Origin: Candidatus Izemoplasmatales bacterium
GTDB lineage: Bacteria > Bacillota_I > Bacilli_A > Izemoplasmatales > Hujiaoplasmataceae
DNA: 64,000 bases
NCBI GenBank assembly: GCA_050177605.1
Contig: JBFXGX010000002.1
Coordinates: 1-64,000, forward strand
Reading direction: 5' to 3'
Below, one piece after another: positions 15,568-49,084 of the stretch (position 1 is the first letter of the stretch; the number at the start of each line of letters is the position of its first letter). A model generated the notes under the pieces. The model was given only the letters and a program-made list of their open reading frames with translations, did no database searches and had not been told where the DNA came from. The translations under genes and the position numbers were made by a program.

Positions 15568-15641
15568 TGTTAATAGCAAAACTAGTGAAAACTAGTGACG
15601 CAAAGCTATAGGGCCTTCGTAAGATGGTAGCCAGTTGCCGT
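15568..15641 (+). ncRNA. GEMM-I cyclic-dinucleotide riboswitch aptamer (c-di-GMP-I fold, A20 variant)
   Basis: GCAAA-ACTAGT-GAAA-ACTAGT-GACGCAAAGC...GGTAGC..GTTGCCG matches the class I consensus; A15575 at the G20-equivalent position. Confidence 0.92.
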
Positions 15642-15669
15642 TGTCTTTTTAAGACGAGGGCATTTTTTT
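15636..15669 (+). terminator. riboswitch-controlled intrinsic terminator
   Basis: TGCC-G-TTGTCTT/AAGACGA-G-GGCA stem plus T7; 5' arm overlaps aptamer 3' end. Confidence 0.85.
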
Positions 15670-15758: not shown

Positions 15759-16442
15759 TTGACTTCTCGATCATTAAAACGACGTTTCATCCTGTCCTTG
15801 GCAATGTTGATATTCTCATTGTCTATTTTTGCATTGTCTACCTACGCATGGTTTACCTATATCAATACATCAAGTTTTTTAGGAGAAGTTGGATTTGTTT
15901 CTGTGGATATTGATGCTTATTTTGATGATGGTAATGGCGGAAGGATAGAGGCTAGTGAAGTCTCTGTCGGTCCAAGCACAACTAAAACCGGCGTTTATTC
16001 GATTAATATCATCAGTAATGCATCCACCAATTATTTTGAAGATTTTAGAATGAATGTTTTGGTATATAGTAACGTATACACCTACATCCGTGTTAAAATA
16101 TATGAACAATTGACACTTACTTATACAAACTTTGAAGGAATCGTAACTGAATTATCCATTTTGAATGATGAATACATGCCTTTTAATTACAATTTAACAG
16201 AGTGGTATGACAACCGCGATGTTGATAATTATATTTACTTCATGGTTCCTACAATGAGAATTGATGAATCAACTTCAGCGATTTTAACATTAATTACAAC
16301 TTATTTCTCCGGTCAAAATTTTTCAAATTATTCTCCGGGTTATTCATTACAAATAGCTTTTTCTGTAGAAGCAGTTCAAGCACACTTAGGCCCTGAAAAT
16401 GTTTGGGGATTAGCGACACCTCCATGGGGAGGAACTTGGTAA
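15759..16442 (+). CDS. SipW-type signal peptide protein (TasA/CalY-like minor subunit or adaptor)
   Basis: hydrophobic helix ending STYA|WFT; beta-rich; YIRVKI, NYIYF, FSVEAVQA motifs shared with 47800 protein. Confidence 0.75.
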   Translation: MTSRSLKRRFILSLAMLIFSLSIFALSTYAWFTYINTSSFLGEVGFVSVDIDAYFDDGNGGRIEASEVSVGPSTTKTGVYSINIISNASTNYFEDFRMNVLVYSNVYTYIRVKIYEQLTLTYTNFEGIVTELSILNDEYMPFNYNLTEWYDNRDVDNYIYFMVPTMRIDESTSAILTLITTYFSGQNFSNYSPGYSLQIAFSVEAVQAHLGPENVWGLATPPWGGTW

Positions 16443-19400: not shown

Positions 19401-22400
19401 CATCCAATACATTTGTTGGTGGGATTGCGACATTAAACGCTGGATCCATTCAAGATACAGCGAATCTAGGAAATGTATCAGTATACAATAGTTACACGAG
19501 TGGTGTTGCGACTTTTGCGACGGATACGAACTATGCAGGTTTAGTCACTGCCTATACCGCTGGTGTTGTTGTAGGTGGCGTCGTCGGTGTTACTTTATCA
19601 GGAAATGCTAGAGTTTATGATACTGGTAATAATGGAGATATTAATGCTATCGCTTATAAATTCGCTCGTTCAGGAGGCGTTTTAGGCGTAAGTCTTTATG
19701 ATGAAGCTAGCGCTGGAGGAATTACATCTGGCATGGGCCTCGTTGATACAATTGAAAACTCTGTTTTATCCAACGGTCTTAACTTTGGTAGTATTAGTGC
19801 AATCACATATCAAATAGGAACCTACACAACTTCTACAACGACACAGTCTTTCACTGTATATTATCTTAATGGTTCATCACTTGACACTTTCTCAGCTACA
19901 ACAACAACAGGGACACAAGAACGTCCGCAAATTAATGCAAGTGCTGGAGGTGTGATTGGATATGGGTTAAGTGTTATGAAAAACATGCTTAACCATGGGA
20001 CAATCTCATCAACGGATGTAGCCGGTGGAATTGTTGGAGCAACCTACGCTTTAGGTAGCGTAACAACCGTTACTCATATCACTACCGCAATTAATTATGG
20101 TGGAATCAAATCCATTTCCACCTCTAGTTATAATTCGATTAACAAGTATTTAGTGTCTACTTCAGATATATCTGCTTATTACATGGCAGATGGTAATTCA
20201 TTTATATTCCCATCTGGCTATACCGTAGAAATGCCTCGCGGAAAAAGGGGATTCGGTGGAATCTTTGGAAGGTTACAACGTGGTACCAACGGTGTCATGA
20301 CATCTGAAGGTGGAGAATTTGATTTTATTGTCAATGCCAATCCAAATATCGATTTGATTGGTCGTTTAGACCAAGTTTATAATTTTTCTAGTTCGAGTCG
20401 TTATTTTAGATTTAATGATGCGATTTATTATTCTGCAAAGTGGGATGATACCACTCAAGTCGTTTTTACAGGTTTTTACTATGGTTATTACGAAATAACG
20501 AGTTATACAGGCTCGAGTCGTAAGTGGTATATTACCGTAACTGCTTACCAATATGAACAAGTCGGTATCGTTTCCACCCAGAGTTCACCACTCGTTGCTT
20601 TAGATACTTATACTTACTACAGTACGAGTCGCTCTACTCCAGTTATAGGTCAGACCGTGACAAGTCCATCGCCATTTTATTATTCGCACATTCCTGTGCC
20701 TTGGATTACAGAAAATCCAAGTGACAGTCATATCACAGATTCAAATACGCAGTACATGTATGATGCTGATTTTGAGATGCGGACAAACTCTAATTTAAGT
20801 ACATATATTTATTATATGGAATATAATTTGTTGGCTGATCGTTTTAAAACTACAGGTACGAATCCTCGACCTAATGGAATGTATGTTCTATCGACAACGG
20901 CTGGGTCTACTTTTGGTAGTGTTTTGCCTGCGAATATTAATACCGATACCATTGGTCTTATTAATGAAGATTATGAAGATCAAATTAGTCTACTCATTGA
21001 TTATTCTAATCTTTCTATCGTATACCATGATACCCTAGATAGCGCGGTTCTTACGAAATATTACGCATTACGTCAAACAATATTTAATGAAAAGTCAGAA
21101 TTAATTCCTAATTCGAGTATTGATGTTGTTTTAACAGAAAATGGCGGTTCATCAACCGTTCTTTCAACACCGACAATTGATTATGATAATCATACGATTA
21201 CCTATCAAATATCGATGGAAGCCTATCTTGCAGGCGGCGTGAATGTCACTTACCAAGTGTCAAGTGCTCAAACCTCCTTGTATGCTTTAATCGCAGAACG
21301 ACCAGATGATTATTATGGTACAAGTCCATCTTCAGCACAGCTTCTTAGTTACCGTACGTTATTATTTCCAGAAAAAAGTATGGGCATTTCAACGAACTAC
21401 GCTCCTGTTCTTTCTGTAACCTTACCTTCGAAGACAATTACGTCGAATACAACACTATCGCTAGGATATTTAACCGTATTTTCAGAAGCCTTTGTAGGAA
21501 GTGATTTATTCGCTTCAGGAAATTACTATACAAACTATCATGTTTATGTTACATTTACTCCACAAATTAGTTCTGTATCTACAGGGACTATTGGAATTTC
21601 ATCCGTATCATTTAATGGTGGAAGTAATATTACTGTATCTAGTCAAACTGATATTCGTTCTTTGGGTGATGTCAATTACAATGGAACATTAACAATTAAT
21701 TTCCAAGATAGTAAGCACATTTGGGTGAGCGGATATGATTTCAAAAACTATTTCGTATTAAAATATAATGATGGTTCAATCGTCCCTTCCAGTTATTATA
21801 CTGTGACATCCTCTCCAGTATCGATTGTAAGTAATGTAGGTTACTACTCGATTACCTTTACATTTATTCCAGGAACTAGAATGGGAGATTATTACTTTGA
21901 ATATCGCTATTATGCTAGTTCGTCTCTATTAACGCTTAACTTTGATAAAGCTGCTTCTAGCGATAAAACAATATTTGACTTTAGTTATTATTCTGATTTA
22001 GATAGCATCTTGATTGCTGGAACATCGATCACATCTTCGGTAAATATTGGAACAACCATCAATATGGATTCTTCAACTTCGAATTTTACATCTTCAACAG
22101 ATCCATTGCTTGCGAGCTACTTATCGAATATAACCTATAATATTAACTATATGAATAGTGGAAGTTTATCGATTTCACCGTTCGCTTCAATTACCTCTGC
22201 TAGACTGGTTAGTGTAGCGTATAATAATGGATACATCACGTATACCTTAGAATACATAGTGAGGGCTGAAAATAACACGACAGCGACTTATACTCATACC
22301 CTTACTGAACGAGCTACGGATTTGAGTAGCGTTCTCAAAAATGGTAATGAAGTTGATTTGAATGATGTTTTTGCAGTGAGAGAAGATTTATCAACTGATT

Positions 22401-23704
22401 TTTCTGTTGATTTAGGATTTGATCAAAGTCTCAATTTATATCAATTAGATACCGCGACGAATTATATTTCTGTTTCAGTTACAGGAACGCATTTGGATGG
22501 TATCACGAATTATGATCCAAGTGAAATTTTAGGGATTACCTATACGACTGATGATTATTTACATATTTTAATGAGTTATGATACCTTACCAGGAATCTAT
22601 TCTTTCACCTTTACATATACGAGAGATACGATAGCTCATTCAATCACTTTCGCGACAACTTTAATTATTACAAAAAGAGCTGGTACAGACCCTTACTTAA
22701 CGGATATTCGTTTCTCTGATTTAGCCAATGAAACGGAGTACCCAATTATTCGTATTACCGATCAATATGGTGAAATCAATACGACGACAGGACTCGATCC
22801 GCGTGTTTACTTTGATGGTATTGACTATGACGAAGCGGACACCTTGGGATATCAATTCTTCCGAGTTGATGGAACTGTCGCGAATACACCACTGAATGAT
22901 TATATGCCTTATGTATTAAATTATTTACCATATGGCGCAACGATTGCGAAATATGCCTATAATTCAACAAGTTCTTCATGGTACTGGACTGATGAAGTCA
23001 CAGCCGCTTCAACAAGTGAAGAAAAAGCGGTATTACTTGCGGATTTCACGAAGTTTGCGGATACAGGACAAGAACCTGGTGAAGGTGAAGAAGTCGTTGT
23101 TTTATACCGCGTCACCTCTGAAGATGGTTCAAATTATACTTATTACTATGTTACAGTTACCGATGTTGTTTACAACGTTACACTTATTTTTGATATCTAC
23201 TATTGTGAAGATGAGACAAATAATGCTTGTGTCTTAGCCTCTGAAAGTGTTGACTTTGCAAATCAACTTGTGATTATCAATGTTAAAAACTATGATACAA
23301 ATGGCGATGATACAGTCGTTGGTGTTACCAATCCTGCAGATTACCCTACATTTAGTACAGTTAACCAGTTGAACAATCAAATGACACAATTTTATTTCAC
23401 GTATTCAGGTGACTACAGGTATAGTTTCGGACGTAATATCTCGGGCTTCTATGTCTTTGATATTGAACTTCCACTTGATCAGTACTTGAATGATATGTAT
23501 ACTTATGATATTGTATTTTCAGACTATACTTTAAATGATGCATCAAATTATGTATCTTATTTAGAAGGAAAATACTTCTATATTGAATATGCAACAAAAA
23601 ACAGATCAAGAAGATTCAATGTTTATATTCATCCAATTGCGAGTCCTTCAACGGACGCACCTTGGGGATTATTTGACTTCTTTAGATCATGGAAACAAGA
23701 ATAA
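16463..23704 (+). CDS. giant secreted adhesin-like protein (GLUG-like repeats, Ser/Thr/Tyr-rich), 2413 aa
   Basis: Sec signal ..FFVNA|EG; FTGSFDGQG, repeated (V/I)GG(V/I)xG and NxGxI motifs; no TM or LPXTG at C-terminus. Confidence 0.75.
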   Translation: MLYLRKNIKFMRLIAFFLVLVSALALMPFFVNAEGITTADPTSDILEFTGDFTWDDTLNVKTSTSLYITYTDFRTNYCTVSSTASECASAANGKFIRFDTAEELYRFSVDVSYEHVYISSNPSENVKLSQDKIAVLLSLNYVLGNNIDYSVMGAKTFIPIGYWFSDVDGIEHKNIFTGSFDGQGFVVKNLYVAGYDYLVYVDQIDAVTTIDIALSNYYSMFPFNGGEITDFGLYNPTFELLNLHIDITKASNIVGINLSSGVVDHVYVIDDRTDVTEAGIRYKVGTATGSFQAAGIIHTNQGTFTNAYYVSKVVVNGSYINKFSVQPVLYLNQGTISNLVYDSSVYLLNVTVGTSTFTVTTPNSLAVGESSATLKSSSSSLNTATDLWYFYASDTYPLLQGLVYDNTLQAYLISTPIDLAFFSRVIAFLTERSGVKFSEDDYVLTNDIDMSVLAPGAYATPSVTFTGTFSGYNSSGSALVDNYYIYNLNLTKGVIRGTGYYVGLFSIIGTNAVVSNFNISQSSYTLATTESYYSYTFYAGSVAGRLTTGTIEDIITDVDIDMGTTAIGKTYLGGVAGEASGLIQRVATYGSLNMNSHTYDVSYNVNPKFYIGGSVGGADLLQLKLKDTVNYGDIYGFGTTSTFNFVSGVTSIETKVGGVIGYILNTSTIKHQLVNVANNGDIYLVSTTNTLSIPSTKRIGGVFGELSGYAPVLESSNVYQFANLYNTGTIHAYYESGSSTIQAAGIGISNTSTAVEYALLFNHGTFDYDATGASYASPTFKYTGTIFDVSSSDVTLSRVYNYGNLTYTSNYYTNINALYYSLNDNQTLIRFSANYGDISYMNNNGASAITLAAPLYISGITTSNNVNFLNVVNGGEIAVVNVNNGSHSIYISGITTSLQSGYYIKNSLNQGNITFAKINGTANIYVGGIVVSNYSGDLHLGTQSTTQPIATVGIINTMNYGNISTSYGLQAQNLYGITGSSNTFVGGIATLNAGSIQDTANLGNVSVYNSYTSGVATFATDTNYAGLVTAYTAGVVVGGVVGVTLSGNARVYDTGNNGDINAIAYKFARSGGVLGVSLYDEASAGGITSGMGLVDTIENSVLSNGLNFGSISAITYQIGTYTTSTTTQSFTVYYLNGSSLDTFSATTTTGTQERPQINASAGGVIGYGLSVMKNMLNHGTISSTDVAGGIVGATYALGSVTTVTHITTAINYGGIKSISTSSYNSINKYLVSTSDISAYYMADGNSFIFPSGYTVEMPRGKRGFGGIFGRLQRGTNGVMTSEGGEFDFIVNANPNIDLIGRLDQVYNFSSSSRYFRFNDAIYYSAKWDDTTQVVFTGFYYGYYEITSYTGSSRKWYITVTAYQYEQVGIVSTQSSPLVALDTYTYYSTSRSTPVIGQTVTSPSPFYYSHIPVPWITENPSDSHITDSNTQYMYDADFEMRTNSNLSTYIYYMEYNLLADRFKTTGTNPRPNGMYVLSTTAGSTFGSVLPANINTDTIGLINEDYEDQISLLIDYSNLSIVYHDTLDSAVLTKYYALRQTIFNEKSELIPNSSIDVVLTENGGSSTVLSTPTIDYDNHTITYQISMEAYLAGGVNVTYQVSSAQTSLYALIAERPDDYYGTSPSSAQLLSYRTLLFPEKSMGISTNYAPVLSVTLPSKTITSNTTLSLGYLTVFSEAFVGSDLFASGNYYTNYHVYVTFTPQISSVSTGTIGISSVSFNGGSNITVSSQTDIRSLGDVNYNGTLTINFQDSKHIWVSGYDFKNYFVLKYNDGSIVPSSYYTVTSSPVSIVSNVGYYSITFTFIPGTRMGDYYFEYRYYASSSLLTLNFDKAASSDKTIFDFSYYSDLDSILIAGTSITSSVNIGTTINMDSSTSNFTSSTDPLLASYLSNITYNINYMNSGSLSISPFASITSARLVSVAYNNGYITYTLEYIVRAENNTTATYTHTLTERATDLSSVLKNGNEVDLNDVFAVREDLSTDFSVDLGFDQSLNLYQLDTATNYISVSVTGTHLDGITNYDPSEILGITYTTDDYLHILMSYDTLPGIYSFTFTYTRDTIAHSITFATTLIITKRAGTDPYLTDIRFSDLANETEYPIIRITDQYGEINTTTGLDPRVYFDGIDYDEADTLGYQFFRVDGTVANTPLNDYMPYVLNYLPYGATIAKYAYNSTSSSWYWTDEVTAASTSEEKAVLLADFTKFADTGQEPGEGEEVVVLYRVTSEDGSNYTYYYVTVTDVVYNVTLIFDIYYCEDETNNACVLASESVDFANQLVIINVKNYDTNGDDTVVGVTNPADYPTFSTVNQLNNQMTQFYFTYSGDYRYSFGRNISGFYVFDIELPLDQYLNDMYTYDIVFSDYTLNDASNYVSYLEGKYFYIEYATKNRSRRFNVYIHPIASPSTDAPWGLFDFFRSWKQE

Positions 23705-23717: not shown

Positions 23718-26276
23718 TTGTGTGTGAGAACGACCGTCAAAGTAAAACAAAATAGTTTATCGAGAAGAATTGTCAGTTTGACTGTTTTTCTTGATGCGCT
23801 GTTCTTGGTCTTAATTATGGCGGTTCTTGCATTTATCTTTATTTCTAGTTCAAGACAAAACAAGATGGATACGGCAATGAGTTCTTCAGAAGCGACAGTG
23901 TCGGCCATTCAAGCATTTTATGATGAAACATTCAGTATGATTGACTCGCTTTCGAAAGACCAAGATATCATTGATTACTTAACTTATTTATCAAGCGCTT
24001 CTTCACCAATCGTAACGAATCCATCAGATAGTCACTATGTTCTATATGAAAACTTCATGTCAAAACTCGATAGTATGAGTCACTACAATAATGGTGGTAT
24101 TTATGATTTTGTTTTCGTTGCCAGTGAAAATGCGTGTTCATCCGGAAGTGATGGCTGTTATATTGGTAGCGATGAACATTATTCGGATGCCTCATGGAAC
24201 TTAAGCCAACGTCCTTGGTTCATTGATTTAGGTGAAAAAAACGCTGTTGTATCTCATCCTTATCTAGATAGCCTTACTTCAGAAATGACGATTACTTTCG
24301 TGATGAAAGTATACGATGGAGAGAACTTGATTGGATACATCGGTATGGATGTCTGGGTATCGAGTATTGCTTCAGCGGTTAATTTATATGATTATACTTC
24401 CGATCAAGCGGGGAAATACATTGTCATTACTGAAATGAATAACGAACAATCGGTGATTTTGTATTTTTCAAATGAAAATTACCCACTGTATACCTTAGCG
24501 AATACTTCTCAGTTTGATACAATTGATAGTAACTATGGTTTTCAAAATGGAATGGCATCGCTATTGAATGATTCTATTAATTCATCGATTGTTGAAATTT
24601 CAACCCTTGGGGATACATACTTTGTTTATCAAGAAACCTTAACCGGTGGAAGTTGGACAGTTAGCGTGCTTGTTGAAGATACCCAACGAATTGGATTAGA
24701 AGCTGCCTTTTTTATTCTTCTTGGATTGATTATGGGATTAATGGCAGTTGTATCTCTTATTTTATCTAAAAAAATTAATCAAACCTTATCACCAATTAAT
24801 AATATTATCGAATCCATTGATGAAATCAAAAATGGAAATTATGATGTAAAAATTAAAGTCAATGAGAATAACGAACTAAAATACGTTGCGGATGCTCTCA
24901 ATTTGATGTCCAAAGAAATTGGAAAACAAGTGAATTTAGTTTATGAAACTTATGTATTTGACCAATTAACGGGATTAAAGAATCGTAAAGCAGTGCATTC
25001 TGATATTGATGAAGCATTATTTAATGGTACAGATAAAGTCGCTGTTTGTTTACTCGATATTGATAACTTTAAAAGTATTAATGTCACTAAGGGACAAAAC
25101 ATTGCGGATGAATTATTAAAATCCATCGCATCTCGTCTTAAAATGACTTTACGTTACAAGGAATATGTTTATTTTAATAGTGGGAATGAATTTGTCTTTA
25201 TCGTTCCTAAAGTAAAACAACTAGAAACAGTGGAATCAGAAATTCTACGTGTGATTGAAAACTTCCAAGACCCACTTGAAGTTAAAAATATTAAAGTGGA
25301 TGTGAAAGTGCATATCGGTGTATCCATCTATCCTTCAGATGGAAAAAATATGACCGAATTAATGAAAAAATGCGATACAGCATTATACAAAGCAAAAGAA
25401 TCACAATCGGTGAAATTTGTCTTCTATAACGATCAACTTACGAGAGAAGTCAATTATCGCGCTCAAATCAATGAAGAACTATCACTCGCTCTAGGCAGAA
25501 ATCAATTATACTTAAAGTATCAGCCACTGATTGATAGCCGCAATGAAATCTATGGCTTTGAAGCCCTTGTTAGATGGAAATCTCCAACACTTGGTGAAAT
25601 CAGTCCGCAAATATTTATTGCGAATGCAGAAGAATCACATATGATTATCCCAATTGGTACATGGATTTTAAGAGAAGCTTGTCGTACCCAGGTCAAACTA
25701 AAAGCCCAATTTGGGAAAAGTTTTGTAATGAGTATTAATGTGAGCCCGGTACAAATCATTCAAAAGGATTTTATTGATGTACTGAAACGAGTTATCCGTG
25801 AGACGGAAATTGATCCGCAAGATTTAGTGTTAGAAATCACCGAGGGTGTGTTAATTGAATCTACAATTTATCTTGAAGAAACAATCAATTTCCTTCATAA
25901 TATTGGTGCGAGAATCGCACTTGATGACTTCGGTACGGGATATGCATCCTTAACCTATTTACGTAAAATTCCGTTTGATAATTTGAAAATTGATAAATCG
26001 TTCGTTGATGGCATCTTCGCAGGAAAAAAAGATCACTCAATCATTGGTACAATTGTCGACATGGTCCATAATCTCGATATGAAGGTTGTGGCAGAAGGTG
26101 TCGAAACGAGAAAACAATATGAATATTTAAAACAAATTTCAACGGATATTTTCCAAGGCTTTTTATTCTCAAAAGCGCTTGAACTGGATGAACTAAAAAA
26201 ATATATAGATCAATTCTATAAAGTGGCGAAAGCAAAACGTATTGATGTATTCGCCGCAAAAGATTATGCTGAATAG
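23718..26276 (+). CDS. membrane sensor (Cache-like + HAMP) with degenerate GGDEF and intact EAL phosphodiesterase
   Basis: 2 TM; RPWF..PYLD Cache motif; GGDEF replaced by SGNEF; EALVRW, EITE, DDFGTGYASL, KIDKSF, EGVE, QG intact. Confidence 0.9.
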   Translation: MCVRTTVKVKQNSLSRRIVSLTVFLDALFLVLIMAVLAFIFISSSRQNKMDTAMSSSEATVSAIQAFYDETFSMIDSLSKDQDIIDYLTYLSSASSPIVTNPSDSHYVLYENFMSKLDSMSHYNNGGIYDFVFVASENACSSGSDGCYIGSDEHYSDASWNLSQRPWFIDLGEKNAVVSHPYLDSLTSEMTITFVMKVYDGENLIGYIGMDVWVSSIASAVNLYDYTSDQAGKYIVITEMNNEQSVILYFSNENYPLYTLANTSQFDTIDSNYGFQNGMASLLNDSINSSIVEISTLGDTYFVYQETLTGGSWTVSVLVEDTQRIGLEAAFFILLGLIMGLMAVVSLILSKKINQTLSPINNIIESIDEIKNGNYDVKIKVNENNELKYVADALNLMSKEIGKQVNLVYETYVFDQLTGLKNRKAVHSDIDEALFNGTDKVAVCLLDIDNFKSINVTKGQNIADELLKSIASRLKMTLRYKEYVYFNSGNEFVFIVPKVKQLETVESEILRVIENFQDPLEVKNIKVDVKVHIGVSIYPSDGKNMTELMKKCDTALYKAKESQSVKFVFYNDQLTREVNYRAQINEELSLALGRNQLYLKYQPLIDSRNEIYGFEALVRWKSPTLGEISPQIFIANAEESHMIIPIGTWILREACRTQVKLKAQFGKSFVMSINVSPVQIIQKDFIDVLKRVIRETEIDPQDLVLEITEGVLIESTIYLEETINFLHNIGARIALDDFGTGYASLTYLRKIPFDNLKIDKSFVDGIFAGKKDHSIIGTIVDMVHNLDMKVVAEGVETRKQYEYLKQISTDIFQGFLFSKALELDELKKYIDQFYKVAKAKRIDVFAAKDYAE

Positions 26277-26287
26277 AGGTGTTTAAA

Positions 26288-27811
26288 ATGAAAATTCAAT
26301 TCTTATCGGATGTTAATTATCCGGCACAGACCTATGAAGTCGTTGCGGCGTTTGTCATTATCATATCGGTCTCTGTGGTGATTTATTTTCTAGCTAGAAA
26401 TATTTGGAAAGAATTTAAATCTTCACAAAATGATAAGAAACTAGTCAAACGAAACTTAAATGGCGATCAAAAGGAAGATAAACTCGACTCAAAACTAGTA
26501 GTGGAAAGACGCGCAGTAAGTAAAAATAGTAAAGATTTAAGTGCACTCATTAATCAAGAGATTTTTCACTCCAAAGAGGGTCAAACGATTAGCGTATTAT
26601 ATTATATTAACTTAGATAACTTTCACTATATCGGAGAAAAATATACGCCTAAACAAGTTGATAAAGCGATTAGTGAGATCACAAAGAGAATCAAAAAACA
26701 TGCTGCGAAAACCTCCATTTCTGGTCATGTGGGTGAAGACACGTTTTTAGTGTATTTTACCGGTGAAGTGAATAATCAATCCATTAAAGAGAGCGCAGAA
26801 GCGCTTCTTGATGTTATTCGCGAACCATTAAAATCCATTCCAGAAGAGCTTACTGCTTCGATGGGTATAGTTCTCTTCCCATTTGATGGAATTAGTGCCT
26901 CACAGTTAATTAAAAACGCTGAAGTTGCATTATATGTATCCAAAAAAGAAGGAAAAAATCGTTACTCACTTTATTCAGAAGATTTAATTGCTAAAGAACA
27001 ATTTAACATTAGTTATTACCAAGAAATAAAAAAATCCATCTCAAATGATGAATTCATTCTGTATTATCAACCGATTGTCGATATTAAGACTGGTAGAATG
27101 ATTGGACTTGAATCACTCTTACGTTGGAACCATCCAACAATGGGTATTTTACCTCCTGGAAAGTTCTTAAATGTTATGGATTTAACTGGAGACATTACCT
27201 GGTTCGGTAAATGGGGCTTTGAAAAAATCGTTGGACAGTATCAGTTATGGAAGAAAAAATATAAAATTAGAGATTTATTTATTTCTACCAACCTTTCTCC
27301 TAAACAATTAGTGATGGAGAATCTAGCAGATGATTTTCACAACATCGTTAAAAAATATGAATTTCCTGCAGAATCATTCTGCTTAGAGATCATTGATTAT
27401 TATTCGATTATTCGTAATCCAATTGCTCTTCAAAATATCACTGAATTCCGTCGCTACGGTTTTAGAATTGCTATTGATGATTTAGGCGATCAGTTTGAAA
27501 TACTTGAAGATATGACAAGAGTCAAAGCAAATATCATCAAGATTTCGCGTGAAGATGTGCTTAAGATTATGAATGGATTCCAAGAAGAACAATCCATTAC
27601 CAAGGCTATCCTTCTCGCTCAACAAAACCAAAAAGTGGTTGTTGCGGAAGGAATAGAAGACGAAAACATGATTAAAGCAATGGCTGAACGTGACATTCGT
27701 TTCATGCAAGGGTACTTTTTCTCTCAACCCAAATCTGTTGAGGATACAGAAAAGATTTTTAGAAGTTCTCCATGGAATGCGGATGAATTCGCTCGTATAA
27801 CTAAAAATTAA
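26288..27811 (+). CDS. single-TM degenerate GGDEF-EAL protein (candidate cyclic-dinucleotide receptor)
   Basis: GEDTF instead of GGDEF; ESLLRW, EIID, DDLGDQFEIL, KISRE degenerate EAL motifs; GAGGTG RBS before ATG 26288. Confidence 0.85.
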   Translation: MKIQFLSDVNYPAQTYEVVAAFVIIISVSVVIYFLARNIWKEFKSSQNDKKLVKRNLNGDQKEDKLDSKLVVERRAVSKNSKDLSALINQEIFHSKEGQTISVLYYINLDNFHYIGEKYTPKQVDKAISEITKRIKKHAAKTSISGHVGEDTFLVYFTGEVNNQSIKESAEALLDVIREPLKSIPEELTASMGIVLFPFDGISASQLIKNAEVALYVSKKEGKNRYSLYSEDLIAKEQFNISYYQEIKKSISNDEFILYYQPIVDIKTGRMIGLESLLRWNHPTMGILPPGKFLNVMDLTGDITWFGKWGFEKIVGQYQLWKKKYKIRDLFISTNLSPKQLVMENLADDFHNIVKKYEFPAESFCLEIIDYYSIIRNPIALQNITEFRRYGFRIAIDDLGDQFEILEDMTRVKANIIKISREDVLKIMNGFQEEQSITKAILLAQQNQKVVVAEGIEDENMIKAMAERDIRFMQGYFFSQPKSVEDTEKIFRSSPWNADEFARITKN

Positions 27812-40815: not shown

Positions 40816-40844
40816 TTGACAAAGAGATTTGACTATTATATAAT
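40816..40844 (+). promoter_or_regulatory. consensus sigma-A promoter of riboswitch operon B
   Basis: TTGACA 40816-40821, 17-nt spacer, TATAAT 40839-40844. Confidence 0.9.
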
Positions 40845-40849
40845 GATGT

Positions 40850-40923
40850 CGTAAATAGCAAAACTAGGGAAACCTAGTGACGCAAAGCTATAGGGCCTTC
40901 GCAAGATGGTAGCCAGTTGCCGT
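40850..40923 (+). ncRNA. GEMM-I cyclic-dinucleotide riboswitch aptamer (A20 variant), second copy
   Basis: 68/71 nt identical to 15572-15642; differences are one compensatory P2 pair (T-A to G-C) and GTAA/GCAA loop; A40857 at position 20. Confidence 0.92.
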
Positions 40924-40951
40924 TATCTTATTTAAGATGAGGGCATTTTTT
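40918..40951 (+). terminator. riboswitch-controlled intrinsic terminator
   Basis: TGCC-G-TTATCTT/AAGATGA-G-GGCA plus T6; covaries with the copy at 15636. Confidence 0.85.
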
Positions 40952-41052
40952 ATTTCATAGGGTTATTTTATCCATTAGTGAGTAAAGAATGCACAAATCT
41001 TCAAAGGGTAGTGGCTTTTTTTTATAGCCAACCCGGACCTAAGAGGGAGGGA

Positions 41053-41829
41053 ATGCACTTTGGTATGAGTACAAAAGTTAAATTAGCCGAACGAGTCGTA
41101 TATGCTTCCAGAGCTACGAGAATAGCTAAGGCTAGTCGCTTAGGAATCATCGTAAGTGCAGTACTAACTTTTCTGATCTTCGCAATATCATATTATGGAG
41201 AGGTCGTCGGAAATTTCACATTCAGCGTTGATAGATTCGCAGAAGAAGCTGGAATAACAATTTACGACAATTCAATTACAAAGAATTACACATCAAGACT
41301 TGCCTCAGCCAAAGTAGATAATGCAGACGGAATGACTGGATATTGTGGTACAGAATACACTACATTCCCAGTTGGACATGAGTTGTGTGTCCCAACCGAT
41401 GACGTTGTTACAAGCGTGGATGGATCAAACAATGGAACATCATATCTTGCCTACACATTTTATGTAGAGAACGCAGGAGATGCTACTGTTGATCTTACCG
41501 CAACCATTAAAATCATCTCCGCAACGAAGGGCGCAGATCAAGCCATTAGGGTCAGAGTGATTATCGATGGGGTAGGAACCACTTACGCAGCAAGACAAAC
41601 GGATAAAGGTGTTGCTCCGGGGGAACTAGAACCGCTTACAGAAGCATTTTACGCTCTCACTACCGTTATGTATCAAGAGTATTACATGTTCAGACCAGGC
41701 GATGTAAAAAAAATAACCGTTCTGCTCTGGTATGAAGGTGAAGACGCTGATCACAATCAAGACATTGTTGGCGGCGGTGTAAAACTAGAGATGGACATTT
41801 CCGTTTCCTACGTTTATGAGCTCGAATAG
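41053..41829 (+). CDS. membrane-anchored fibre-subunit-like protein
   Basis: basic N-terminus and TM without the A|WF site; C-terminal ITVLLWYEGED resembles ITVRIYVEGWD of the next gene; start is ATG 41053 or 41065 (GGAGG at 41046). Confidence 0.6.
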   Translation: MHFGMSTKVKLAERVVYASRATRIAKASRLGIIVSAVLTFLIFAISYYGEVVGNFTFSVDRFAEEAGITIYDNSITKNYTSRLASAKVDNADGMTGYCGTEYTTFPVGHELCVPTDDVVTSVDGSNNGTSYLAYTFYVENAGDATVDLTATIKIISATKGADQAIRVRVIIDGVGTTYAARQTDKGVAPGELEPLTEAFYALTTVMYQEYYMFRPGDVKKITVLLWYEGEDADHNQDIVGGGVKLEMDISVSYVYELE

Positions 41830-41902: not shown

Positions 41903-42841
41903 ATGAAAACATTAAGAAACAAAGTTATTCTTTCAGCAGTCGTATTAGCTTTCGCATTAATCGCAACAATCGGTTCAACTTATGCATGGTTCACAGTATC
42001 TCAAACAGCAACTGTAGAATCAATGACATTAAACGTTACAGCAGCTAACTCTTTATTAGTTAGAGTGTATGATGGTGAAGATCCAGTTGCAAACGAAGTT
42101 GATTTAAAAACAGCTACTAATTATACTACTACAATTACAAATGCAGTTATCACAGCTTCAAGTTTATATACTAATTTAGCTACATATAAATTACAACCTG
42201 TTACTGCTATTCAAGATGGATATGATTCACTAGATGCTGGTACTTTAGGATATTTAGCAGACTTAACTGATTATACTCATACCATTACTGCTTTATCAAA
42301 TGATGTTCTAGACGGTGCTTTTAATTCATCTACTGGTTATTTCGTAGAACTAAAATTCTGGGTTTTACAACAAACAGGTGTTAACCAAAACTTATTATTA
42401 AATACTTTGTCAGTTCAAGCAGCTGATCAAGATGGAACAAGAGAAGATATCATCAACACTGTAAGATTATCAGCAGGTACTGCTTCTGCATCCTTAATTT
42501 ATGCACAAGGTGGAACTGCAGCATTAGCAAACGATTATGGTTTTGCATTCGTAGCTGGATTACCAGGATATACAGCAGCACCAGGTGCTGGAGAATTTAA
42601 TTCAATCGCAGCAGGCGACTTAACAACAATCACAACAAATGCTCTAGATGCATCTTCTGCAGGTGTAACTGGCGCTACAGTAGCAGATGGAGCTTCTGTC
42701 ATCGCTACACTAACAAATAACACTCCAACATTAATCACTGTAAGAATTTATGTTGAAGGTTGGGATGCTCAAACTACAAACGACGTAATTCAAGCTCAAT
42801 TTAATATTGCATGGTCTTTCATTATTGATGCTGCTGTTTAA
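41903..42841 (+). CDS. SipW-type signal peptide protein, probable major fibre subunit (TasA/CalY-like)
   Basis: ATIGSTYA|WFTVS; Ala/Thr-rich; codons strongly A/T-ending. Confidence 0.8.
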   Translation: MKTLRNKVILSAVVLAFALIATIGSTYAWFTVSQTATVESMTLNVTAANSLLVRVYDGEDPVANEVDLKTATNYTTTITNAVITASSLYTNLATYKLQPVTAIQDGYDSLDAGTLGYLADLTDYTHTITALSNDVLDGAFNSSTGYFVELKFWVLQQTGVNQNLLLNTLSVQAADQDGTREDIINTVRLSAGTASASLIYAQGGTAALANDYGFAFVAGLPGYTAAPGAGEFNSIAAGDLTTITTNALDASSAGVTGATVADGASVIATLTNNTPTLITVRIYVEGWDAQTTNDVIQAQFNIAWSFIIDAAV

Positions 42842-42873
42842 TTAGAACAATTACAATTATAAAGTAACCTAAT

Positions 42874-42935
42874 AGGTAAAAACATAACTTAGGGAGCTCC
42901 CCTAAGTTATGTTACCTTATAGGGATTGTTTTTTT
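42874..42935 (+). terminator. long hairpin / partial terminator after the major subunit gene
   Basis: 14-bp perfect stem AACATAACTTAGGG/CCCTAAGTTATGTT, extendable; T run at 42929. Confidence 0.7.
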
Positions 42936-43099: not shown

Positions 43100-43825
43100 A
43101 TGGAAAATACGGTCAAAAAAGGTAAAACAGTAAAAACGATATTAAATGTTGTATTTTACGTGTTTCTTGTTCTTGTAGTATTGTATTCAGTGTTAGCACT
43201 ATTCTCAACACAAGACAATAATCGAACATCAGTTTTAGGAATGTCTGCGTTAACAGTTCAATCAAATTCAATGAGTCCGACTTTTAAAGAAGGTGACCTC
43301 ATTTTCATTGATACGAATTTTAATGTAGAAGATTTAGCAGTTGGAGATGTAATTACCTATCTGATGATCGTCGATACAGTTGATGGTCCAGTACAAATTT
43401 ACAACTCCCATAGAATTACAGAAATAACAGTTATTGATGGTGTTTATTGGTTTACAACACAAGGAGATAACACTGTTACAAATCCAACCGAAGATGCAAA
43501 CCCAGTTTTTCAAAATGATATCATTGGTGTATGGGGTGGAACAGTATGGGCGAATGTAGGAACAGGACTTGATAGTCTAATCACATTCTTAAAATCACCT
43601 ACAGGATTCTTCTTATTCATTGTATTACCCGTCTTTGCTTTCCTTGTTTACCAAGCAGTTCGTTTCATTGGAATAATGACAGAGTACAATACTCAAAAAG
43701 CTCTTGGTTCAAGAGTATCAGTAGAGGAAGAAGCCATTAAGATTGCAAGAGCACAAATCGAAGCAGAAATGCGCGAAAAAGCTCTAAAAGATCAAGAAAC
43801 GAAAGATCAAGAAGCAAAAAAATAA
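43100..43825 (+). CDS. sipW: signal peptidase I, SipW/ER-type (S26B)
   Basis: VQSNSMSP..GDLI, SHRI, TQGDN (Ser-His dyad); N- and C-terminal TM; AAGGAG RBS before ATG 43100. Confidence 0.88.
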   Translation: MENTVKKGKTVKTILNVVFYVFLVLVVLYSVLALFSTQDNNRTSVLGMSALTVQSNSMSPTFKEGDLIFIDTNFNVEDLAVGDVITYLMIVDTVDGPVQIYNSHRITEITVIDGVYWFTTQGDNTVTNPTEDANPVFQNDIIGVWGGTVWANVGTGLDSLITFLKSPTGFFLFIVLPVFAFLVYQAVRFIGIMTEYNTQKALGSRVSVEEEAIKIARAQIEAEMREKALKDQETKDQEAKK

Positions 43826-43880: not shown

Positions 43881-45551
43881 ATGAATGAATTTTCACATTA
43901 TTTTGTTGAACTATTTAAACGAATATGGGAAGATACAGTCTATCTATTCAGAGATGCAATTTGGAACAGTATTATCAAAAAGTTTTTTGAAAATCTTGCT
44001 TCCTATTGGCGACTATTATTAGATAGCTCATCCAATTTTAGTGTTATATCCTGGACTATGGTTGCTCTAACCAGTGTCATCTTCTTGTTTTTTATTATTT
44101 TAGTTATCGCACAAATTGTTATCTGGTGGCGTAAATTCGCTTCATTCAGAAAAATTGAAATAGAAAAAAATGAGCTTATAGAAGAAATCGCTATGCTGAA
44201 CGATCGTGTGATCGCCCTTATGGATGAAAAGAATCAAATCATGGCGATGAAAGTATCTCAACTTGGAATAAATGCAACCACAGGTGCTCCAGCAGAACAA
44301 GTAATCACTGGACCACTGGGATACCAACAAAGAGTTCAACCAGCGTATGCCGGAGCAGGATATACGCAAGCTGGACCAATTCAAAGATCATATCAAGGTG
44401 TTGGTACACCTGAAGAACCTGTTCAAGAATCACGTGCTGCTCAAGCTGCTGCAGCTGCCGGTCCATCTAGATTCGTTAAATTAATCCAAGTAGATAAAGA
44501 ATACTCTGGAAAAGATACACATATTTATATGGAAGAAGAAGATTATATCTCTTTACCAGAATTAGTCACTCATTTTATTAATTTCTCAGCTTCACAATTA
44601 AAACTCTACTACACACCTAAAATGATTTCTTATTTCTTCGCAGGTATGGCTGCTTCAAAAGTAATCATCCTAGAAGGTATCTCAGGTACAGGTAAAACAT
44701 CTTTACCTTATGCTATGGCGAAATTCTTTAACAATAATGCCGCAATGATTTCCGTTCAACCTTCTTGGAGAGACCGTGCTGAAATCATCGGTTATTTAAA
44801 TGAATTTACAAAACGATTTAATGAAACGGATTTCTTAAAAGCTTTATATGAATCAACTTATCGTAAAGATGTCAATTTCATCGTTCTCGATGAAATGAAC
44901 TTAGCGAGAATTGAGTATTATTTCGCAGAGTTCTTATCGATTATGGAAATGCCTGACCCTTCAGAATGGAAAATCGACTTAGTTCCAGATTCCAAACCGA
45001 ATGATCCATTAAAAGTAATCAATGGTAAAATCGCTGTTCCAATGAACGTATGGTTTGTTGGTACTGCGAATAAAGATGATTCAACGTATACGATTACAGA
45101 TAAAGTATATGACCGTGCTATCGCACTTGAATTTGAATCGAAAGGAGTGTTCTTCCAAGCTCCTGAAACTCCTTCAGTTCATATGTCCTATTCTTATTTA
45201 CAAGAATTATTCGACGAAGCTTTTTATAAATACCCAGTGTCCGAAGAATTATTAAATAAATTCTCAATCTTAGATAAATATGTTCAAGCAAACTTTAAAA
45301 TAGCCTTTGGTAACCGTATTATGGTTCAAGTTCACAAATTTGTTCCTGTCTTCGTTGCGACTGGCGGAAATGAAGAAGAAGGTCTTGACTATATCTTCGC
45401 CAACAAGATTTTAAGAAAATTCGAAAGCCTTAACTTAGCATTCTTACATGAAGAGTTAGAAGAACTCATCAACCAAATCCAAAAGATTTTTGGGAAAAAT
45501 GGATTCGAAGAATCTGTTAAATTCATCAAAAACTTGATGAAATTGATGTAG
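43881..45551 (+). CDS. membrane-anchored McrB-like AAA+ GTPase
   Basis: N-terminal TM and coiled coil; GISGTGKT, LDEMNLAR.EYYF, GTANKDD (NxxD), DKVYDRA. Confidence 0.85.
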   Translation: MNEFSHYFVELFKRIWEDTVYLFRDAIWNSIIKKFFENLASYWRLLLDSSSNFSVISWTMVALTSVIFLFFIILVIAQIVIWWRKFASFRKIEIEKNELIEEIAMLNDRVIALMDEKNQIMAMKVSQLGINATTGAPAEQVITGPLGYQQRVQPAYAGAGYTQAGPIQRSYQGVGTPEEPVQESRAAQAAAAAGPSRFVKLIQVDKEYSGKDTHIYMEEEDYISLPELVTHFINFSASQLKLYYTPKMISYFFAGMAASKVIILEGISGTGKTSLPYAMAKFFNNNAAMISVQPSWRDRAEIIGYLNEFTKRFNETDFLKALYESTYRKDVNFIVLDEMNLARIEYYFAEFLSIMEMPDPSEWKIDLVPDSKPNDPLKVINGKIAVPMNVWFVGTANKDDSTYTITDKVYDRAIALEFESKGVFFQAPETPSVHMSYSYLQELFDEAFYKYPVSEELLNKFSILDKYVQANFKIAFGNRIMVQVHKFVPVFVATGGNEEEGLDYIFANKILRKFESLNLAFLHEELEELINQIQKIFGKNGFEESVKFIKNLMKLM

Positions 45552-45561
45552 GTGAATAACC

Positions 45562-47148
45562 GTGATTGATAGAGATGCGAGTAGATATTATAAAAAAATA
45601 AATACAACATTTGTTGGCGTAAATAAACAAGATGATTTCGCGAAAATGTTTATCAATCTATTAGAGAGCGGGAATACGACTTTGTATCAAAAAGAACGTC
45701 GTGAACGTCGAATCTTCGACGATTCATGGATGGATTCTGTTGAGCAAGCGATTCCCGTCATTGATAAATTGACACGAAAACCGAGAGAAACACTTAAAAA
45801 AACAAGCATGGTTGTGCCTGTTGAAAGAGCAAAGAAAATTGATAAAGAGACCGTGAGGCATCTTTCTCAAAATACGCAGTTAATTCGAAGCATTGACCGC
45901 GAAGGAAATGTTATTCCTTCAAAGGTTTTAACGAGCTTTTCAGAGTCAGATTTAGGAACATATGAAAATCGTTTCTTACGCTCTTTGGTTGATAATCTCT
46001 TTATCTTCATTGAAAAAAGATACGATCTTATCATCAAAAAAATGCATACTGAATATGTCAATTTCTTGAATGTAAAATCTGAAATTGAATGGATGGGTGC
46101 GACCATTGATTATGATGTTACTTTTCAAATTCATCAAAATATGGAACAAGATGAAATCGATCAAAAGAATCAAGTTTTACTAGATCGTATTACCGAGATG
46201 AGAACATCCATCACGAACTTCAAAATGTCGAAATTTATGCTCGATATGAAAGCTTTCCCTGGTGTTGTTCCACCGATTATGCAAACCAATCTTTTACAAA
46301 AAAATGTTGATTTCCGTAAATGTTATGATTTATGGATATTAATCGAGCAAGTCGATCGTATTGGATACGATGTTGACGTTTTCGAAAGAAATGTTGAATT
46401 TAAAGATAAATATCTTGCAGATATTGAAAATGCCATGATGGTACTTTACGCAGCAGTTGCGAATAACCAAACAAGCGAATTTGTTTTGAATCAACAAGAT
46501 CCCTACGTTTATCGTAAAACAAGACGCCCAAAAGTCATGAAGAATAACCCTGCAGATATTACGATTGATCCAGGATACTATCAACTTGAAAATTATGGCT
46601 TAAGCCAATACTATTTAGAGCAAATCAAAAAAAGTAATTATTCCCGTTTTAAAACACTAACTGAAGCTGGAATTACTTTAAATGAGTCTGTCGATATTGT
46701 TTTCAAACAATTAGGAAATATTACGAATGCAGTTTACGAAGACTATATCCAAACGAATTATCATCCAGAAACAAAGGAAACGCTTGAAGAAAAAGTAGCG
46801 GTTCAAGAAGAGATTATTGAGTTATATAAAAAAATTGAACAAATCAAAAGAGATGACTTAAAAACTTTAGCTACGCAAAAAGCCATCGCTTTACTTAATC
46901 TACGAAACTATAAAGATGATATCGCCAAGAAAAAAGAATTAGAGCGTCTTGAGGAAGAAAAAGAAAAAGAACTTGAACGCTTAGAAAAAGAAAGACAAAA
47001 GAAAATAAGAGAAGAAGAACGCCTTGCAAAACAACGTAAAATTGAAGCTGCTAAGAAAATATTAGCAGAAGAAAAAGCGAAACGAAAAGCAAGAGAAAAG
47101 AAAAAACAAAGATCTGTATCTTCAAAAAAAGAAAAATTAAATAAATAA
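45562..47148 (+). CDS. DUF2357-like McrB partner with C-terminal charged coiled coil; no nuclease motif seen
   Basis: TYENRFL..L, T.LLQKN..FRKCY.LW; C-terminal ~100 aa E/K/R-rich. Confidence 0.7.
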   Translation: MIDRDASRYYKKINTTFVGVNKQDDFAKMFINLLESGNTTLYQKERRERRIFDDSWMDSVEQAIPVIDKLTRKPRETLKKTSMVVPVERAKKIDKETVRHLSQNTQLIRSIDREGNVIPSKVLTSFSESDLGTYENRFLRSLVDNLFIFIEKRYDLIIKKMHTEYVNFLNVKSEIEWMGATIDYDVTFQIHQNMEQDEIDQKNQVLLDRITEMRTSITNFKMSKFMLDMKAFPGVVPPIMQTNLLQKNVDFRKCYDLWILIEQVDRIGYDVDVFERNVEFKDKYLADIENAMMVLYAAVANNQTSEFVLNQQDPYVYRKTRRPKVMKNNPADITIDPGYYQLENYGLSQYYLEQIKKSNYSRFKTLTEAGITLNESVDIVFKQLGNITNAVYEDYIQTNYHPETKETLEEKVAVQEEIIELYKKIEQIKRDDLKTLATQKAIALLNLRNYKDDIAKKKELERLEEEKEKELERLEKERQKKIREEERLAKQRKIEAAKKILAEEKAKRKAREKKKQRSVSSKKEKLNK

Positions 47149-47164: not shown

Positions 47165-47791
47165 ATGAAAATGAAAAAACGACTGTCTCTATCATTATTA
47201 GCATTGATAGGTTCCGTTTTTATGTTTGTTGTTGCCTCTTTTGCTTGGCTTCAAGTGAGTGGAGTTGTGAATATTTTCGGTCCTACTGCTTCTGTGAATA
47301 ATGTTCAGTCAGAAGCTGTTATTTATACCTCAACTGATGGAACCAACTATTCAGAAACGGAATCAATTAACGTAGCGACTGGTTCTCCTGGAAATAGTTA
47401 CTACTTCCAAATCGTAGTTACAAATACTGGCACAATCGCATCCACATCTCGCGTGATGCTCTATAGTTTCACGGATTCGTTATCGAATCCAAATGGAACC
47501 AACGCTGGGTTGCTTGCAGGATTATCTTTAACCCAGGTGATTCGTGTTTCTACGTCAAACAACTATAATGCAGATACGATTCAAAATACATTAATGGTTG
47601 ATTTGTTACCGACTGATACTGGTGGAGACTTTACGACTTCTTATCTAACTTTGTTAGAAGGCATTTTTTTAGAACCCAATGAAACTGCCATTTTATACGT
47701 TACTTTTACCCTCGATGAAGATACATCCAATGATTATCAAAATTTAAATTTACTCATTGGTAGCGTATCGATTTCATCGGTAAGTGAGTAG
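47165..47791 (+). CDS. SipW-type signal peptide protein (minor fibre subunit)
   Basis: FVVASFA|WLQ; PG..YYF.I.VTNTG, LEPNET, NDYQN (TasA/CalY-like). Confidence 0.75.
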   Translation: MKMKKRLSLSLLALIGSVFMFVVASFAWLQVSGVVNIFGPTASVNNVQSEAVIYTSTDGTNYSETESINVATGSPGNSYYFQIVVTNTGTIASTSRVMLYSFTDSLSNPNGTNAGLLAGLSLTQVIRVSTSNNYNADTIQNTLMVDLLPTDTGGDFTTSYLTLLEGIFLEPNETAILYVTFTLDEDTSNDYQNLNLLIGSVSISSVSE

Positions 47792-47799: not shown

Positions 47800-48396
47800 A
47801 TGAAAAAATGGACTTTATTTTTCTCGATATCTTCTTTACTTCTCATTGTAGTTTCACTCGTGATGTTAAGTATAACTTATGGTTGGTTTACTGCACTATT
47901 TTCCATTCCTGATGGAGAAGTAGGTGTGGGTGCACTAGATTACACTGCTAGTGGAAGTTTTGTCCAAGATAATACGATTTTCGTTCCTGAAGAAGAACTG
48001 GTCAATACTGCTTTTGAGGTAGACAATCAATCCTCATTAAAATCGCAATTGCGAATTCAAATAACGTATACGAAAGTAGTCAACAACGCCGGAACAATCA
48101 CTTCGTCAACGCAAATTTATCATGATGATTCAACGGATCATTTATCGGTTGTGATGAATGAGAACTTTGTTCAAAGCGGAGACTATTTCTACTTTGGTGG
48201 CGATACTTATGATATCCTTACTTATTCTGGTGTCATTTCATTAATTACCTCCATTGTTTATGATGGTAACTTTGCGGGTATTGACTATGAAAATATGCCG
48301 ATATCCATTTCCATTACGATACAAGTCAAACAAGCGGACAATGTCACATGGTCTGATCTTGCAGGATACGATTTTTCGACAGGATTACCTGCATAA
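47800..48396 (+). CDS. SipW-type signal peptide protein (minor fibre subunit)
   Basis: LSITYG|WFT; QLRIQI, DYFYF, ITIQVKQA. Confidence 0.75.
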   Translation: MKKWTLFFSISSLLLIVVSLVMLSITYGWFTALFSIPDGEVGVGALDYTASGSFVQDNTIFVPEEELVNTAFEVDNQSSLKSQLRIQITYTKVVNNAGTITSSTQIYHDDSTDHLSVVMNENFVQSGDYFYFGGDTYDILTYSGVISLITSIVYDGNFAGIDYENMPISISITIQVKQADNVTWSDLAGYDFSTGLPA

Positions 48397-48411: not shown

Positions 48412-49044
48412 GTGCTAAAGAAAGTACTTAAAAAAATATTACAAGCCCTGCCTTTTATCTTCTTTGCATTAGCCTTTTTCCTTATTGTCCAAGTGCTTGT
48501 TGCAATTAAGAATGATCGAACACCAGATTTCTTTGGTTATTCAGTATTTCTTGTTGTATCCCCTTCAATGGAAGATACAATTATGACTGGGGATATTATT
48601 TTTGTTGATACTTCCATCACAGATTATGAAGTTGGCGACATCATTTCATTTCACCGTCCTGATGATGAGTCAATCATTATTACACACCGCATCGTTTCCA
48701 TCAATGAACTTGATGGTAATCTGTTAATTACGACACAGGGTGATAATAATTTCGAATCGTTATCTTGGGAAAAAGACTTTACGGTAGACCATATTATTGG
48801 GGTTTATCAAGGGAAGTCAACCTTCTTAGGGAATATCTATTCTTTTATCTACACAGGTGGCGTTAGTTTAATTTATGGTGTCGTGATTTTAGCGTTTTTA
48901 ACGATTGGTGTTACTGAAGCTATTTCGATTGTGAAGACTTTGTCAAAAGCAAAAGTGGAAGAAGAAGAGAAAAAGAAACAAGAACTCATTGAAATCGAAA
49001 AAGAACGACTTCGAAAAGAATTTGAGGAAGAAAATAAACAATAA
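48412..49044 (+). CDS. sipW: signal peptidase I, SipW/ER-type (S26B), second paralog
   Basis: VVSPSME..GDII, THRI, TQGDNN. Confidence 0.88.
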   Translation: MLKKVLKKILQALPFIFFALAFFLIVQVLVAIKNDRTPDFFGYSVFLVVSPSMEDTIMTGDIIFVDTSITDYEVGDIISFHRPDDESIIITHRIVSINELDGNLLITTQGDNNFESLSWEKDFTVDHIIGVYQGKSTFLGNIYSFIYTGGVSLIYGVVILAFLTIGVTEAISIVKTLSKAKVEEEEKKKQELIEIEKERLRKEFEEENKQ

Positions 49045-49047: not shown

Positions 49048-49084
49048 AAACGCACACTTTTTTGGGAGTGTGCGTCTTTTTTTA
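49048..49084. terminator. bidirectional terminator ending operon B
   Basis: ACGCACACT/AGTGTGCGT stem with T run. Confidence 0.75.

Follow-up and report, generated by a model that had tools for sequence, protein, structure and literature searches.

Two adjacent genes in a 64,000-nucleotide stretch of Candidatus Izemoplasmatales contig JBFXGX010000002.1 (hereafter the window) encode an AAA+ NTPase related to McrB and a partner related to McrC. The first protein has a single transmembrane (TM) segment and no DNA-reading domain, and the second has no nuclease. Both lie in an operon for SipW-like signal peptidases and secreted, TasA-like subunits, which begins with a cyclic di-GMP (c-di-GMP) riboswitch (Table 1). 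On the basis of these sequences, and by analogy with known ring-and-finger machines, we lean with moderate confidence towards a CoCoPALM-type module, in which a domesticated membrane McrBC NTPase ring would serve the biogenesis of surface structures. The sequence-only reading of this DNA had proposed that the pair descends from McrBC, has lost both DNA reader and nuclease, and is linked to SipW and secreted subunits; the analysis below supports all of these points.

The arrangement is already in print. Bell et al. (eLife 2024; PMC11090510) describe an NxD GTPase clade whose members carry a fused FtsB-like domain of TM segment and coiled coil (HHpred E 1.2 for the likeness to FtsB) and adjoin signal peptidases. 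They name it CoCoPALM (example sequence RHC33375.1 in the supplement), note coiled coils on both the McrB and the McrC homologues, and defer its treatment to a later paper. The NxD McrB, the N-terminal TM segment with coiled coil, the coiled coil on the partner and the linked signal peptidases are all found here. Loss of the nuclease, TasA-like subunits, c-di-GMP control, operon copies with McrB only and a subgroup with giant proteins are not stated in the text of that paper, its figures apart; the McrB-only copies and the giant adhesin-like subgroup are additional features of the present loci. A literature search combining McrB, DUF2357 and transmembrane returned only Bell et al., a search by name, with subscription journals outside its coverage, found no CoCoPALM follow-up among the papers listed, and a search for Acholeplasma or Izemoplasma with fibres or c-di-GMP found nothing on these organisms.

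The McrB-like protein carries the motifs GISGTGKT (residue 266), DEMNLAR (residue 337) and ANKDDS (residue 396), from which it had earlier been placed in the McrB clade. Taken alone, it gave no match in a sequence search of the PDB and only a sub-threshold match to AAA_5 in Pfam. A profile built from 80 homologues matched E. coli McrB (three sequences, E 1.6e-5 to 3.5e-5) and nothing else in the PDB, in agreement with that placement. Walker A, D337-E338, N340, N397, D399-D400, R412 and R479 are invariant in all 80 single-TM homologues. N397-K-D399-D400 fits the NxD-then-D pattern of NxD-branch McrB GTPases. More generally, the AAA+ catalytic set (Walker A and B, signature Asn/Asp and Arg finger) and the finger/stalk partner resemble those of McrBC from E. 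coli and T. gammatolerans, from which the system differs in having neither DNA-binding domain nor nuclease. The sequence YDRA has one Arg where E. coli has RRR, and the invariant R479, in FGNR, may be a true sensor II. Some McrB relatives do not discriminate between nucleotides (10.64898/2026.08.31.748284), so that the present protein need not be specific for GTP. The AAA domain is under purifying selection (pN 0.088 against pS 0.676, from one same-genus homologue), and this, together with the conservation of the McrB and partner genes, rules out an artefact.

Residues 1–220 contain no DNA-binding domain. They comprise amphipathic helices (1–55), the TM segment (about 60–82), a coiled coil with a heptad pattern (about 87–130) and a low-complexity linker (133–196), ahead of the AAA+ domain (about 222–556). 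The coiled coil and the Pro/Gln/Ala/Gly linker had been recognised in the sequence-only reading, but the several TM helices that it described reduce to one segment of TM strength (KD19 maximum 3.0). Pro, Gln, Ala and Gly make up 59% of the 64 linker residues, and the linker is the least conserved stretch of the protein. Across 126 McrB homologues, Lys and Arg average 4.5 after the TM segment and 0.7 before it, and positive charges follow it in 98% of the proteins. This bias places the coiled coil and the AAA+ domain most likely inside the cell, which distinguishes the anchor from FtsB, whose coiled coil lies outside. A search for stand-alone copies of the anchor gave seven short proteins, one of them named partial, which are probably contig-end fragments.

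In the partner, a DUF2357 finger and stalk (residues 1–307) is followed by a low-confidence loop (309–345), helices (349–399) and a single 120-residue helix (408–527). The protein itself has no match in Pfam, and searches of PDB sequences with partner profiles gave nothing meaningful. DUF2357 is matched by 45 of 80 aligned homologues, and is present in 21%, 97% and 93% of the members of the three best Atlas clusters (score 0.94), which supports the DUF2357-like character assigned earlier. When the model (predicted local distance difference test, pLDDT, 88.6) was searched with Foldseek, E. coli McrC took ranks 1 and 2, though not significantly (E 0.025 and 0.031), and in a wide fold search residues 50–264 aligned to T. 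gammatolerans McrC at a middling Z of 7.2 (root mean square deviation, rmsd, 3.7; 137 residues aligned). R137 (in YENR) and K247 are conserved candidates for the basic residue with which McrC stimulates hydrolysis (Arg263 / Lys157). A prediction of the complex, with two McrB AAA+ domains and partner residues 1–308, scored 0.06 against a mark of 0.32, and is counted neither for nor against.

Judged from the model and from the homologous sequences, the nuclease of the partner is gone, not just diverged, as had been suspected from the missing motif. The model mixes strands and helices in the finger and is helix only over residues 349–527, with blocks of pLDDT 80–97 up to residue 510 and about 40 low-confidence residues ahead of the helices. 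An all-helix structure after residue 349 leaves no room for a nuclease, and no intact nuclease fold is present in the model. None of the 80 homologues matched PD-(D/E)xK families at E 0.01, and the partner has no Pro-Asp dipeptide anywhere. A loose nuclease motif pattern matched 7 of 98 homologue tails, at no conserved column. The wide fold search listed no nuclease among its matches, but the list was filled by long helices and so excludes nothing alone; a PDDEXK_7 search of the genome was uninformative, with no signal in control genomes. The tails of the 98 homologues are 30–49% charged and almost free of Cys; charged residues reach 68% at the end of the present tail, which has many i,i+4 salt bridges and resembles a stiff single helix. 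The partner has no TM segment (KD19 maximum 0.91), there is no recognisable output domain in the model or in Pfam scans of the 80 homologues, and lengths across homologues run from about 370 to 900 residues. Membership of canonical McrBC was rejected, there being no DNA-binding domain on McrB and no PD-(D/E)xK nuclease on the partner.

The operon runs in the order promoter, riboswitch, subunits A and B, peptidase 1, McrB, partner, subunits D and E, peptidase 2, terminator. The position of the pair between sipW and two subunit genes is thus as first described, but the close packing applies only to the McrB–partner and partner–subunit D gaps (10 and 16 nucleotides), whereas peptidase 1 and McrB are 55 nucleotides apart. 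The promoter scan found 32 sites where 31.4 were expected, and only the site ahead of the riboswitch matches at 12/12. From the aptamer and the hairpin overlapping its 3' strand we infer an ON switch. A promoter-like site (43027–43055, 10/12) lies between the hairpin that follows subunit B and peptidase 1, so that the motor genes may own a promoter; such matches occur at chance rate. In one RNA run (0.07 of words matched), contigs cover 25 of 30 bins from the riboswitch to subunit D; they come from related strains, DNA is possibly present, and the run is not proof of expression.

Table 1. Features of the McrBC-like operon and of the second riboswitch block in the window (aa, amino acids).
Feature	Position	Strand	Remarks
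Sigma-70-type promoter	40816..40844	+	12/12 consensus, directly 5' of riboswitch
c-di-GMP-I riboswitch aptamer	40847..40924	+	Rfam RF01051, 64.5 bits (gathering score 35)
Terminator-like hairpin and U-run	40918..40952	+	overlaps aptamer 3' strand; z -3.09
Subunit A	41053..41829	+	258 aa, N-terminal hydrophobic segment
Subunit B	41903..42841	+	312 aa, signal peptide ending TYAWF
Strong hairpin 3' of subunit B	42868..42923	+	terminator or RNA-stabilising element; z -5.56
SipW-like signal peptidase 1	43100..43825	+	241 aa, Ser and His motifs, charged C-terminal tail
McrB-like AAA+ NTPase, single-TM	43881..45551	+	556 aa
McrC-like partner	45562..47148	+	528 aa
Subunit D	47165..47791	+	208 aa, signal peptide ending SFAWL
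Subunit E	47800..48396	+	198 aa, signal peptide ending TYGWF
SipW-like signal peptidase 2	48412..49044	+	210 aa, charged C-terminal tail; TIGR02228 70.1 bits, PF10502 above cut-off
Intrinsic terminator closing operon	49050..49075	+	3' of peptidase 2
Second c-di-GMP-I riboswitch	15565..15642	+	65.4 bits (Rfam)
Subunit F	15759..16442	+	227 aa, signal peptide ending TYAWF
Secreted protein	16463..23704	+	2413 aa, no Pfam match
Two GGDEF-EAL proteins	23718..27811	+	852 and 510 aa

Profile-profile comparison shows subunits A and B to be homologous (probability 99.1, E 6e-19); the start of A was set after a ribosome-binding site, the longest open reading frame beginning at 40978. Subunit B is the probable major fibre subunit, and its GC content at third codon positions (0.138) is the lowest of nine genes compared. 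The TasA fibre 8aur is first in both fold searches with its model, weakly (Foldseek E 3.5e-3; Z 6.1, rmsd 3.6, 140 residues aligned), with archaeal bundling pili close after it. Peptidase_M73 was matched by one of 99 subunit homologues (E 0.0009, its standing against the family cut-off not fixed), and a search of PDB sequences with the subunit B profile gave nothing meaningful. Peptidase 1 matches TIGR02228 (75.9 bits, cut-off 51.85) and falls below the cut-off of 190 for NF046067 (71.7 bits), a Bacillus-specific model. The charged tails of both SipW-like proteins are helical, follow the last TM segment, and are candidate docking sites for the McrB or partner coiled coils. The operon resembles tapA-sipW-tasA in combining a SipW-type (archaeal-like) peptidase with secreted subunits for which TasA is the best fold match. 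It differs in the number of peptidases (two) and of subunit types (four to five), and in its giant secreted protein, riboswitch and NTPase pair.

Named close relatives are mostly Candidatus Izemoplasmatales. The McrB gene is present in 32 of 36 genomes of the same family, and in 8 of 10 and 1 of 14 genomes of the other two families of the order, the last being weak and of another type. Loci within the family share the same flanking genes, with about 70% identity across the family. For a wider survey, 126 distinct single-TM McrB proteins were collected, of which 96, flanked by two or more genes on either side, were used (30 were dropped). The partner is next to McrB in 89 of these loci, and there is a signal peptidase in 83, subunit genes in 80 and a GGDEF/EAL gene in 51. 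The link to sipW is therefore not universal, contrary to a possibility that the earlier reading had raised. Twelve of the 13 loci lacking a peptidase have a protein of at least 800 residues within three genes of McrB, and a peptidase-less subgroup has the order giant protein, GGDEF-EAL gene, McrB, partner (L027, L034, L039, L119, L158, L166, L167, L192, L193, L202). In a quick tree the giant-protein subgroup nests among sip-linked loci (Shimodaira–Hasegawa-like approximate likelihood ratio test, SH-aLRT, 97; four sip-linked rows inside). The giant protein of L027, the sole one scanned, has 16 cadherin-like stretches.

Among 399 scored genomes, a full-length TM-McrB (E 1e-200 or better) is present in 62 and subunit A in 59, with three weak matches excluded; 58 genomes have both. 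The exceptions are a genome cut by a contig end (G226), one with the giant-protein type only (G442), and three in which the locus includes a peptidase and the subunit genes match weakly or are divergent (G331, G337, G395). Genome G011, lacking subunit A, McrB and partner residues 1–100, was rejected as a case of functional co-loss, as its gap also spans metabolic genes. The system extends into Clostridia, where 12 of 300 genomes in the class of G443 match and the same sip-subunit operon occurs in 9 of 11 such loci. A riboswitch 5' of subunit A was found with Rfam in 5 of 5 and 4 of 7 loci, and by a strict pattern in 40 of 63, a figure which is a floor.

We hypothesise that high c-di-GMP would switch the operon on, and that McrB would assemble into a hexamer on the cytoplasmic face of the membrane, with its N-terminus outside and its coiled coil and AAA+ domain inside. 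The finger of the partner would then enter the ring and trigger hydrolysis site by site, as the McrC finger activates one McrB site at a time (PMC7680126). The helical tail, in the former place of the nuclease, would relay this work or its timing to partners in the membrane; the likeliest are the charged tails that the SipW proteins expose to the cytoplasm, or subunit precursors still held in the membrane. The outcome would be a chaperone-like assembly platform, with control over how TasA-like subunits and very large surface proteins are processed, released or anchored. In NorQD, a ring and a partner finger remodel a membrane protein target (PMC13036017). The likeness to NorQD and the MoxR-VWA systems is that of a works-like model only, in which the ring turns the finger of its partner; the system here has no VWA domain. 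The biogenesis reading is supported by the invariant catalytic residues, the locus links, the distribution, the riboswitch and the finger-in-pore precedents of McrC and NorQD. If it is right, an anti-phage motor has been kept for housekeeping as an energy-consuming part on SipW/TasA-type fibres. A further implication is that wall-less bacteria and some Clostridia would have surface fibres under c-di-GMP control, and the culturable Acholeplasma laidlawii, with a family member on record (ABX81726.1), makes the function directly testable.

Several points weigh against biogenesis. The case is one of guilt by association, and the match to the TasA fold is weak. B. subtilis makes TasA fibres from the three-gene operon tapA-sipW-tasA without a motor (PMC9674648), so none is needed there. 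Subunits are cleaved and polymerise outside, where a cytoplasmic ring cannot get at them. In McrBC the pore is blocked by McrC (PMC7680126), and the partner, with no TM segment, cannot cross the membrane. The co-occurrence of McrB and subunit A is not an independent test, because the genomes share ancestry and the profile for subunit A was derived from loci linked to McrBC. Finally, six operon copies have McrB and no partner gene. These are duplicate fibre operons (L026, L195–L199) in which the McrB motifs are intact, and in the five genomes searched every partner copy adjoins an McrB other than that of the partnerless operon; the partner is therefore either shared in trans or dispensable.

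The same observations bear on the alternatives. A signalling switch, in which the membrane NTPase would sense the status of the fibre or adhesin (surface contact or assembly stress) and regulate neighbouring GGDEF/EAL proteins or SipW activity, is in our view unlikely. It would fit the frequent GGDEF/EAL genes, one of them directly upstream of McrB in the giant-protein subgroup, and the persistence of the module where the surface protein shifts from TasA-like subunits to cadherin-like giants. However, 45 of the 96 loci show no GGDEF/EAL gene (many of them on short contigs), those in the window are 16 kb away, and the partner offers no recognisable output domain. A rotary or retraction motor would have the hexamer as a membrane-fixed stator and the partner as a shaft, its 120-residue helix driving extension, retraction or movement. 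The anchored ring and the stiff, highly charged tail end are consistent with this, and McrC is proposed to step round its ring like F/V-type ATPases (PMC7680126). We nevertheless consider such a motor very unlikely: a partner without TM segment provides no visible link across the membrane, its length is variable, donor-strand fibres resist depolymerisation (PMC9674648), and McrB-only copies exist. Quite unlikely, too, is the more inclusive idea of a rotary machine of McrB stator and nuclease-less McrC shaft that extrudes, positions or retracts TasA-type fibres and giant adhesins under c-di-GMP, with McrB-only copies borrowing the shaft in trans. Such a machine would supply energy for the assembly of donor-strand fibres; it would have arisen from a defence system and be common to several operons.

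The sequence-only reading had offered as its own alternative a membrane-sensing defence module guarding a fibre used as phage receptor, which would here act by abortive infection. The nearest non-membrane AAA+ relatives (37–42% identity) are encoded alongside VWA, phosphatase, kinase, helicase and DUF2357 genes, in the operon layout of Type II CoCoNuT, and the partner N-termini of these relatives align with the present one, with YEN and TN motifs in common. The PADLOC model PDC-M26A, on which a literature search found no paper, matches the AAA+ domain at E 4e-41, indicating kinship only. Six TM helices might, in principle, assemble into a pore. In the quick tree the single-TM, McrB-partner-McrB and 600-residue multi-TM types group together (SH-aLRT 95), apart from the CoCoNuT-type relatives, with long-branch warnings at the root. 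Membership of CoCoNuT was rejected, as there is no tandem HEPN/nuclease gene and no helicase among the conserved neighbours.

The neighbourhood was scanned with PADLOC using one representative of each of 102 clusters (223 unlabelled proteins of 100–700 residues, within five genes). No conserved effector emerged; defence-specific matches were single-locus (AbiL-like twice, Fic, AbiQ), and clusters that recur gave a metallo-beta-lactamase fold and a helix-turn-helix protein. No HEPN, TerY-P or helicase gene was found among the conserved neighbours within the size range scanned, in which the system again differs from Type II CoCoNuT. Genes that recur nearby encode subunits, peptidases, GGDEF/EAL, giant and metabolic proteins; close homologues do not lie in defence islands. 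There was no full-length match (80% of the McrB-like protein) in 72,556 plasmids or 50,697 phage records. These results weaken the defence alternative, and the fixed position, the identity across the family and the c-di-GMP control suit housekeeping better; we judge a role in defence highly improbable. One record from a phage collection, marked unverified (L218, MT835511.1), holds a Type II CoCoNuT-like operon with VWA, phosphatase, kinase, helicase-like, McrB and DUF2357 genes.

Other layouts of the pair were also seen. A McrB-partner-McrB arrangement occurs beside large proteins (L169, L188, L189, L191, L231), one of which has a transglutaminase-like domain. The two AAA+ domains of L169 are the same in sequence, as are those of L191, which suggests that gene conversion or a recent duplication has taken place. 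Loci L204–L210 have a multi-TM McrB of about 600 residues, a zinc-ribbon partner, a sip gene and subunit-like genes, with an ABC transporter in the loci read. The present genome contains a second McrBC-like pair (L041:1–3916, G000:C57), similar to those in L030, L040, L042, L043 and L194. In this type McrB has about 11–12 predicted TM segments (8 in a contig-end copy), the partner (520–536 residues) ends in zinc-ribbon motifs, and no sip or subunit genes adjoin. The middle of the zinc-ribbon partner gives weak PD-(D/E)xK-like leads (feature score 0.82, TM about 0.4), and this partner could represent an intermediate whose nuclease is dead.

Elsewhere in the window, the second riboswitch heads a block made up of subunit F, the 2413-residue secreted protein and the two GGDEF-EAL genes. 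Homologues of the 2413-residue protein lie inside the McrBC locus in 19 of the 96 loci. Since homologues from that block share the McrBC locus in other genomes, the system is split in two in this window. Two large, related-looking exported proteins are encoded at 11999–15346 (minus strand, 1115 residues) and 56690–59335 (plus strand, 881 residues); the gene of the former points away from the second riboswitch, and its product contains a bacterial Ig-like domain. Downstream of the operon, a minus-strand oxidoreductase-like gene and a gene for 233 residues (49087–51152) separate peptidase 2 from a gene for 262 residues that directly follows it in most family loci, and this segment is probably a lineage-specific insertion.

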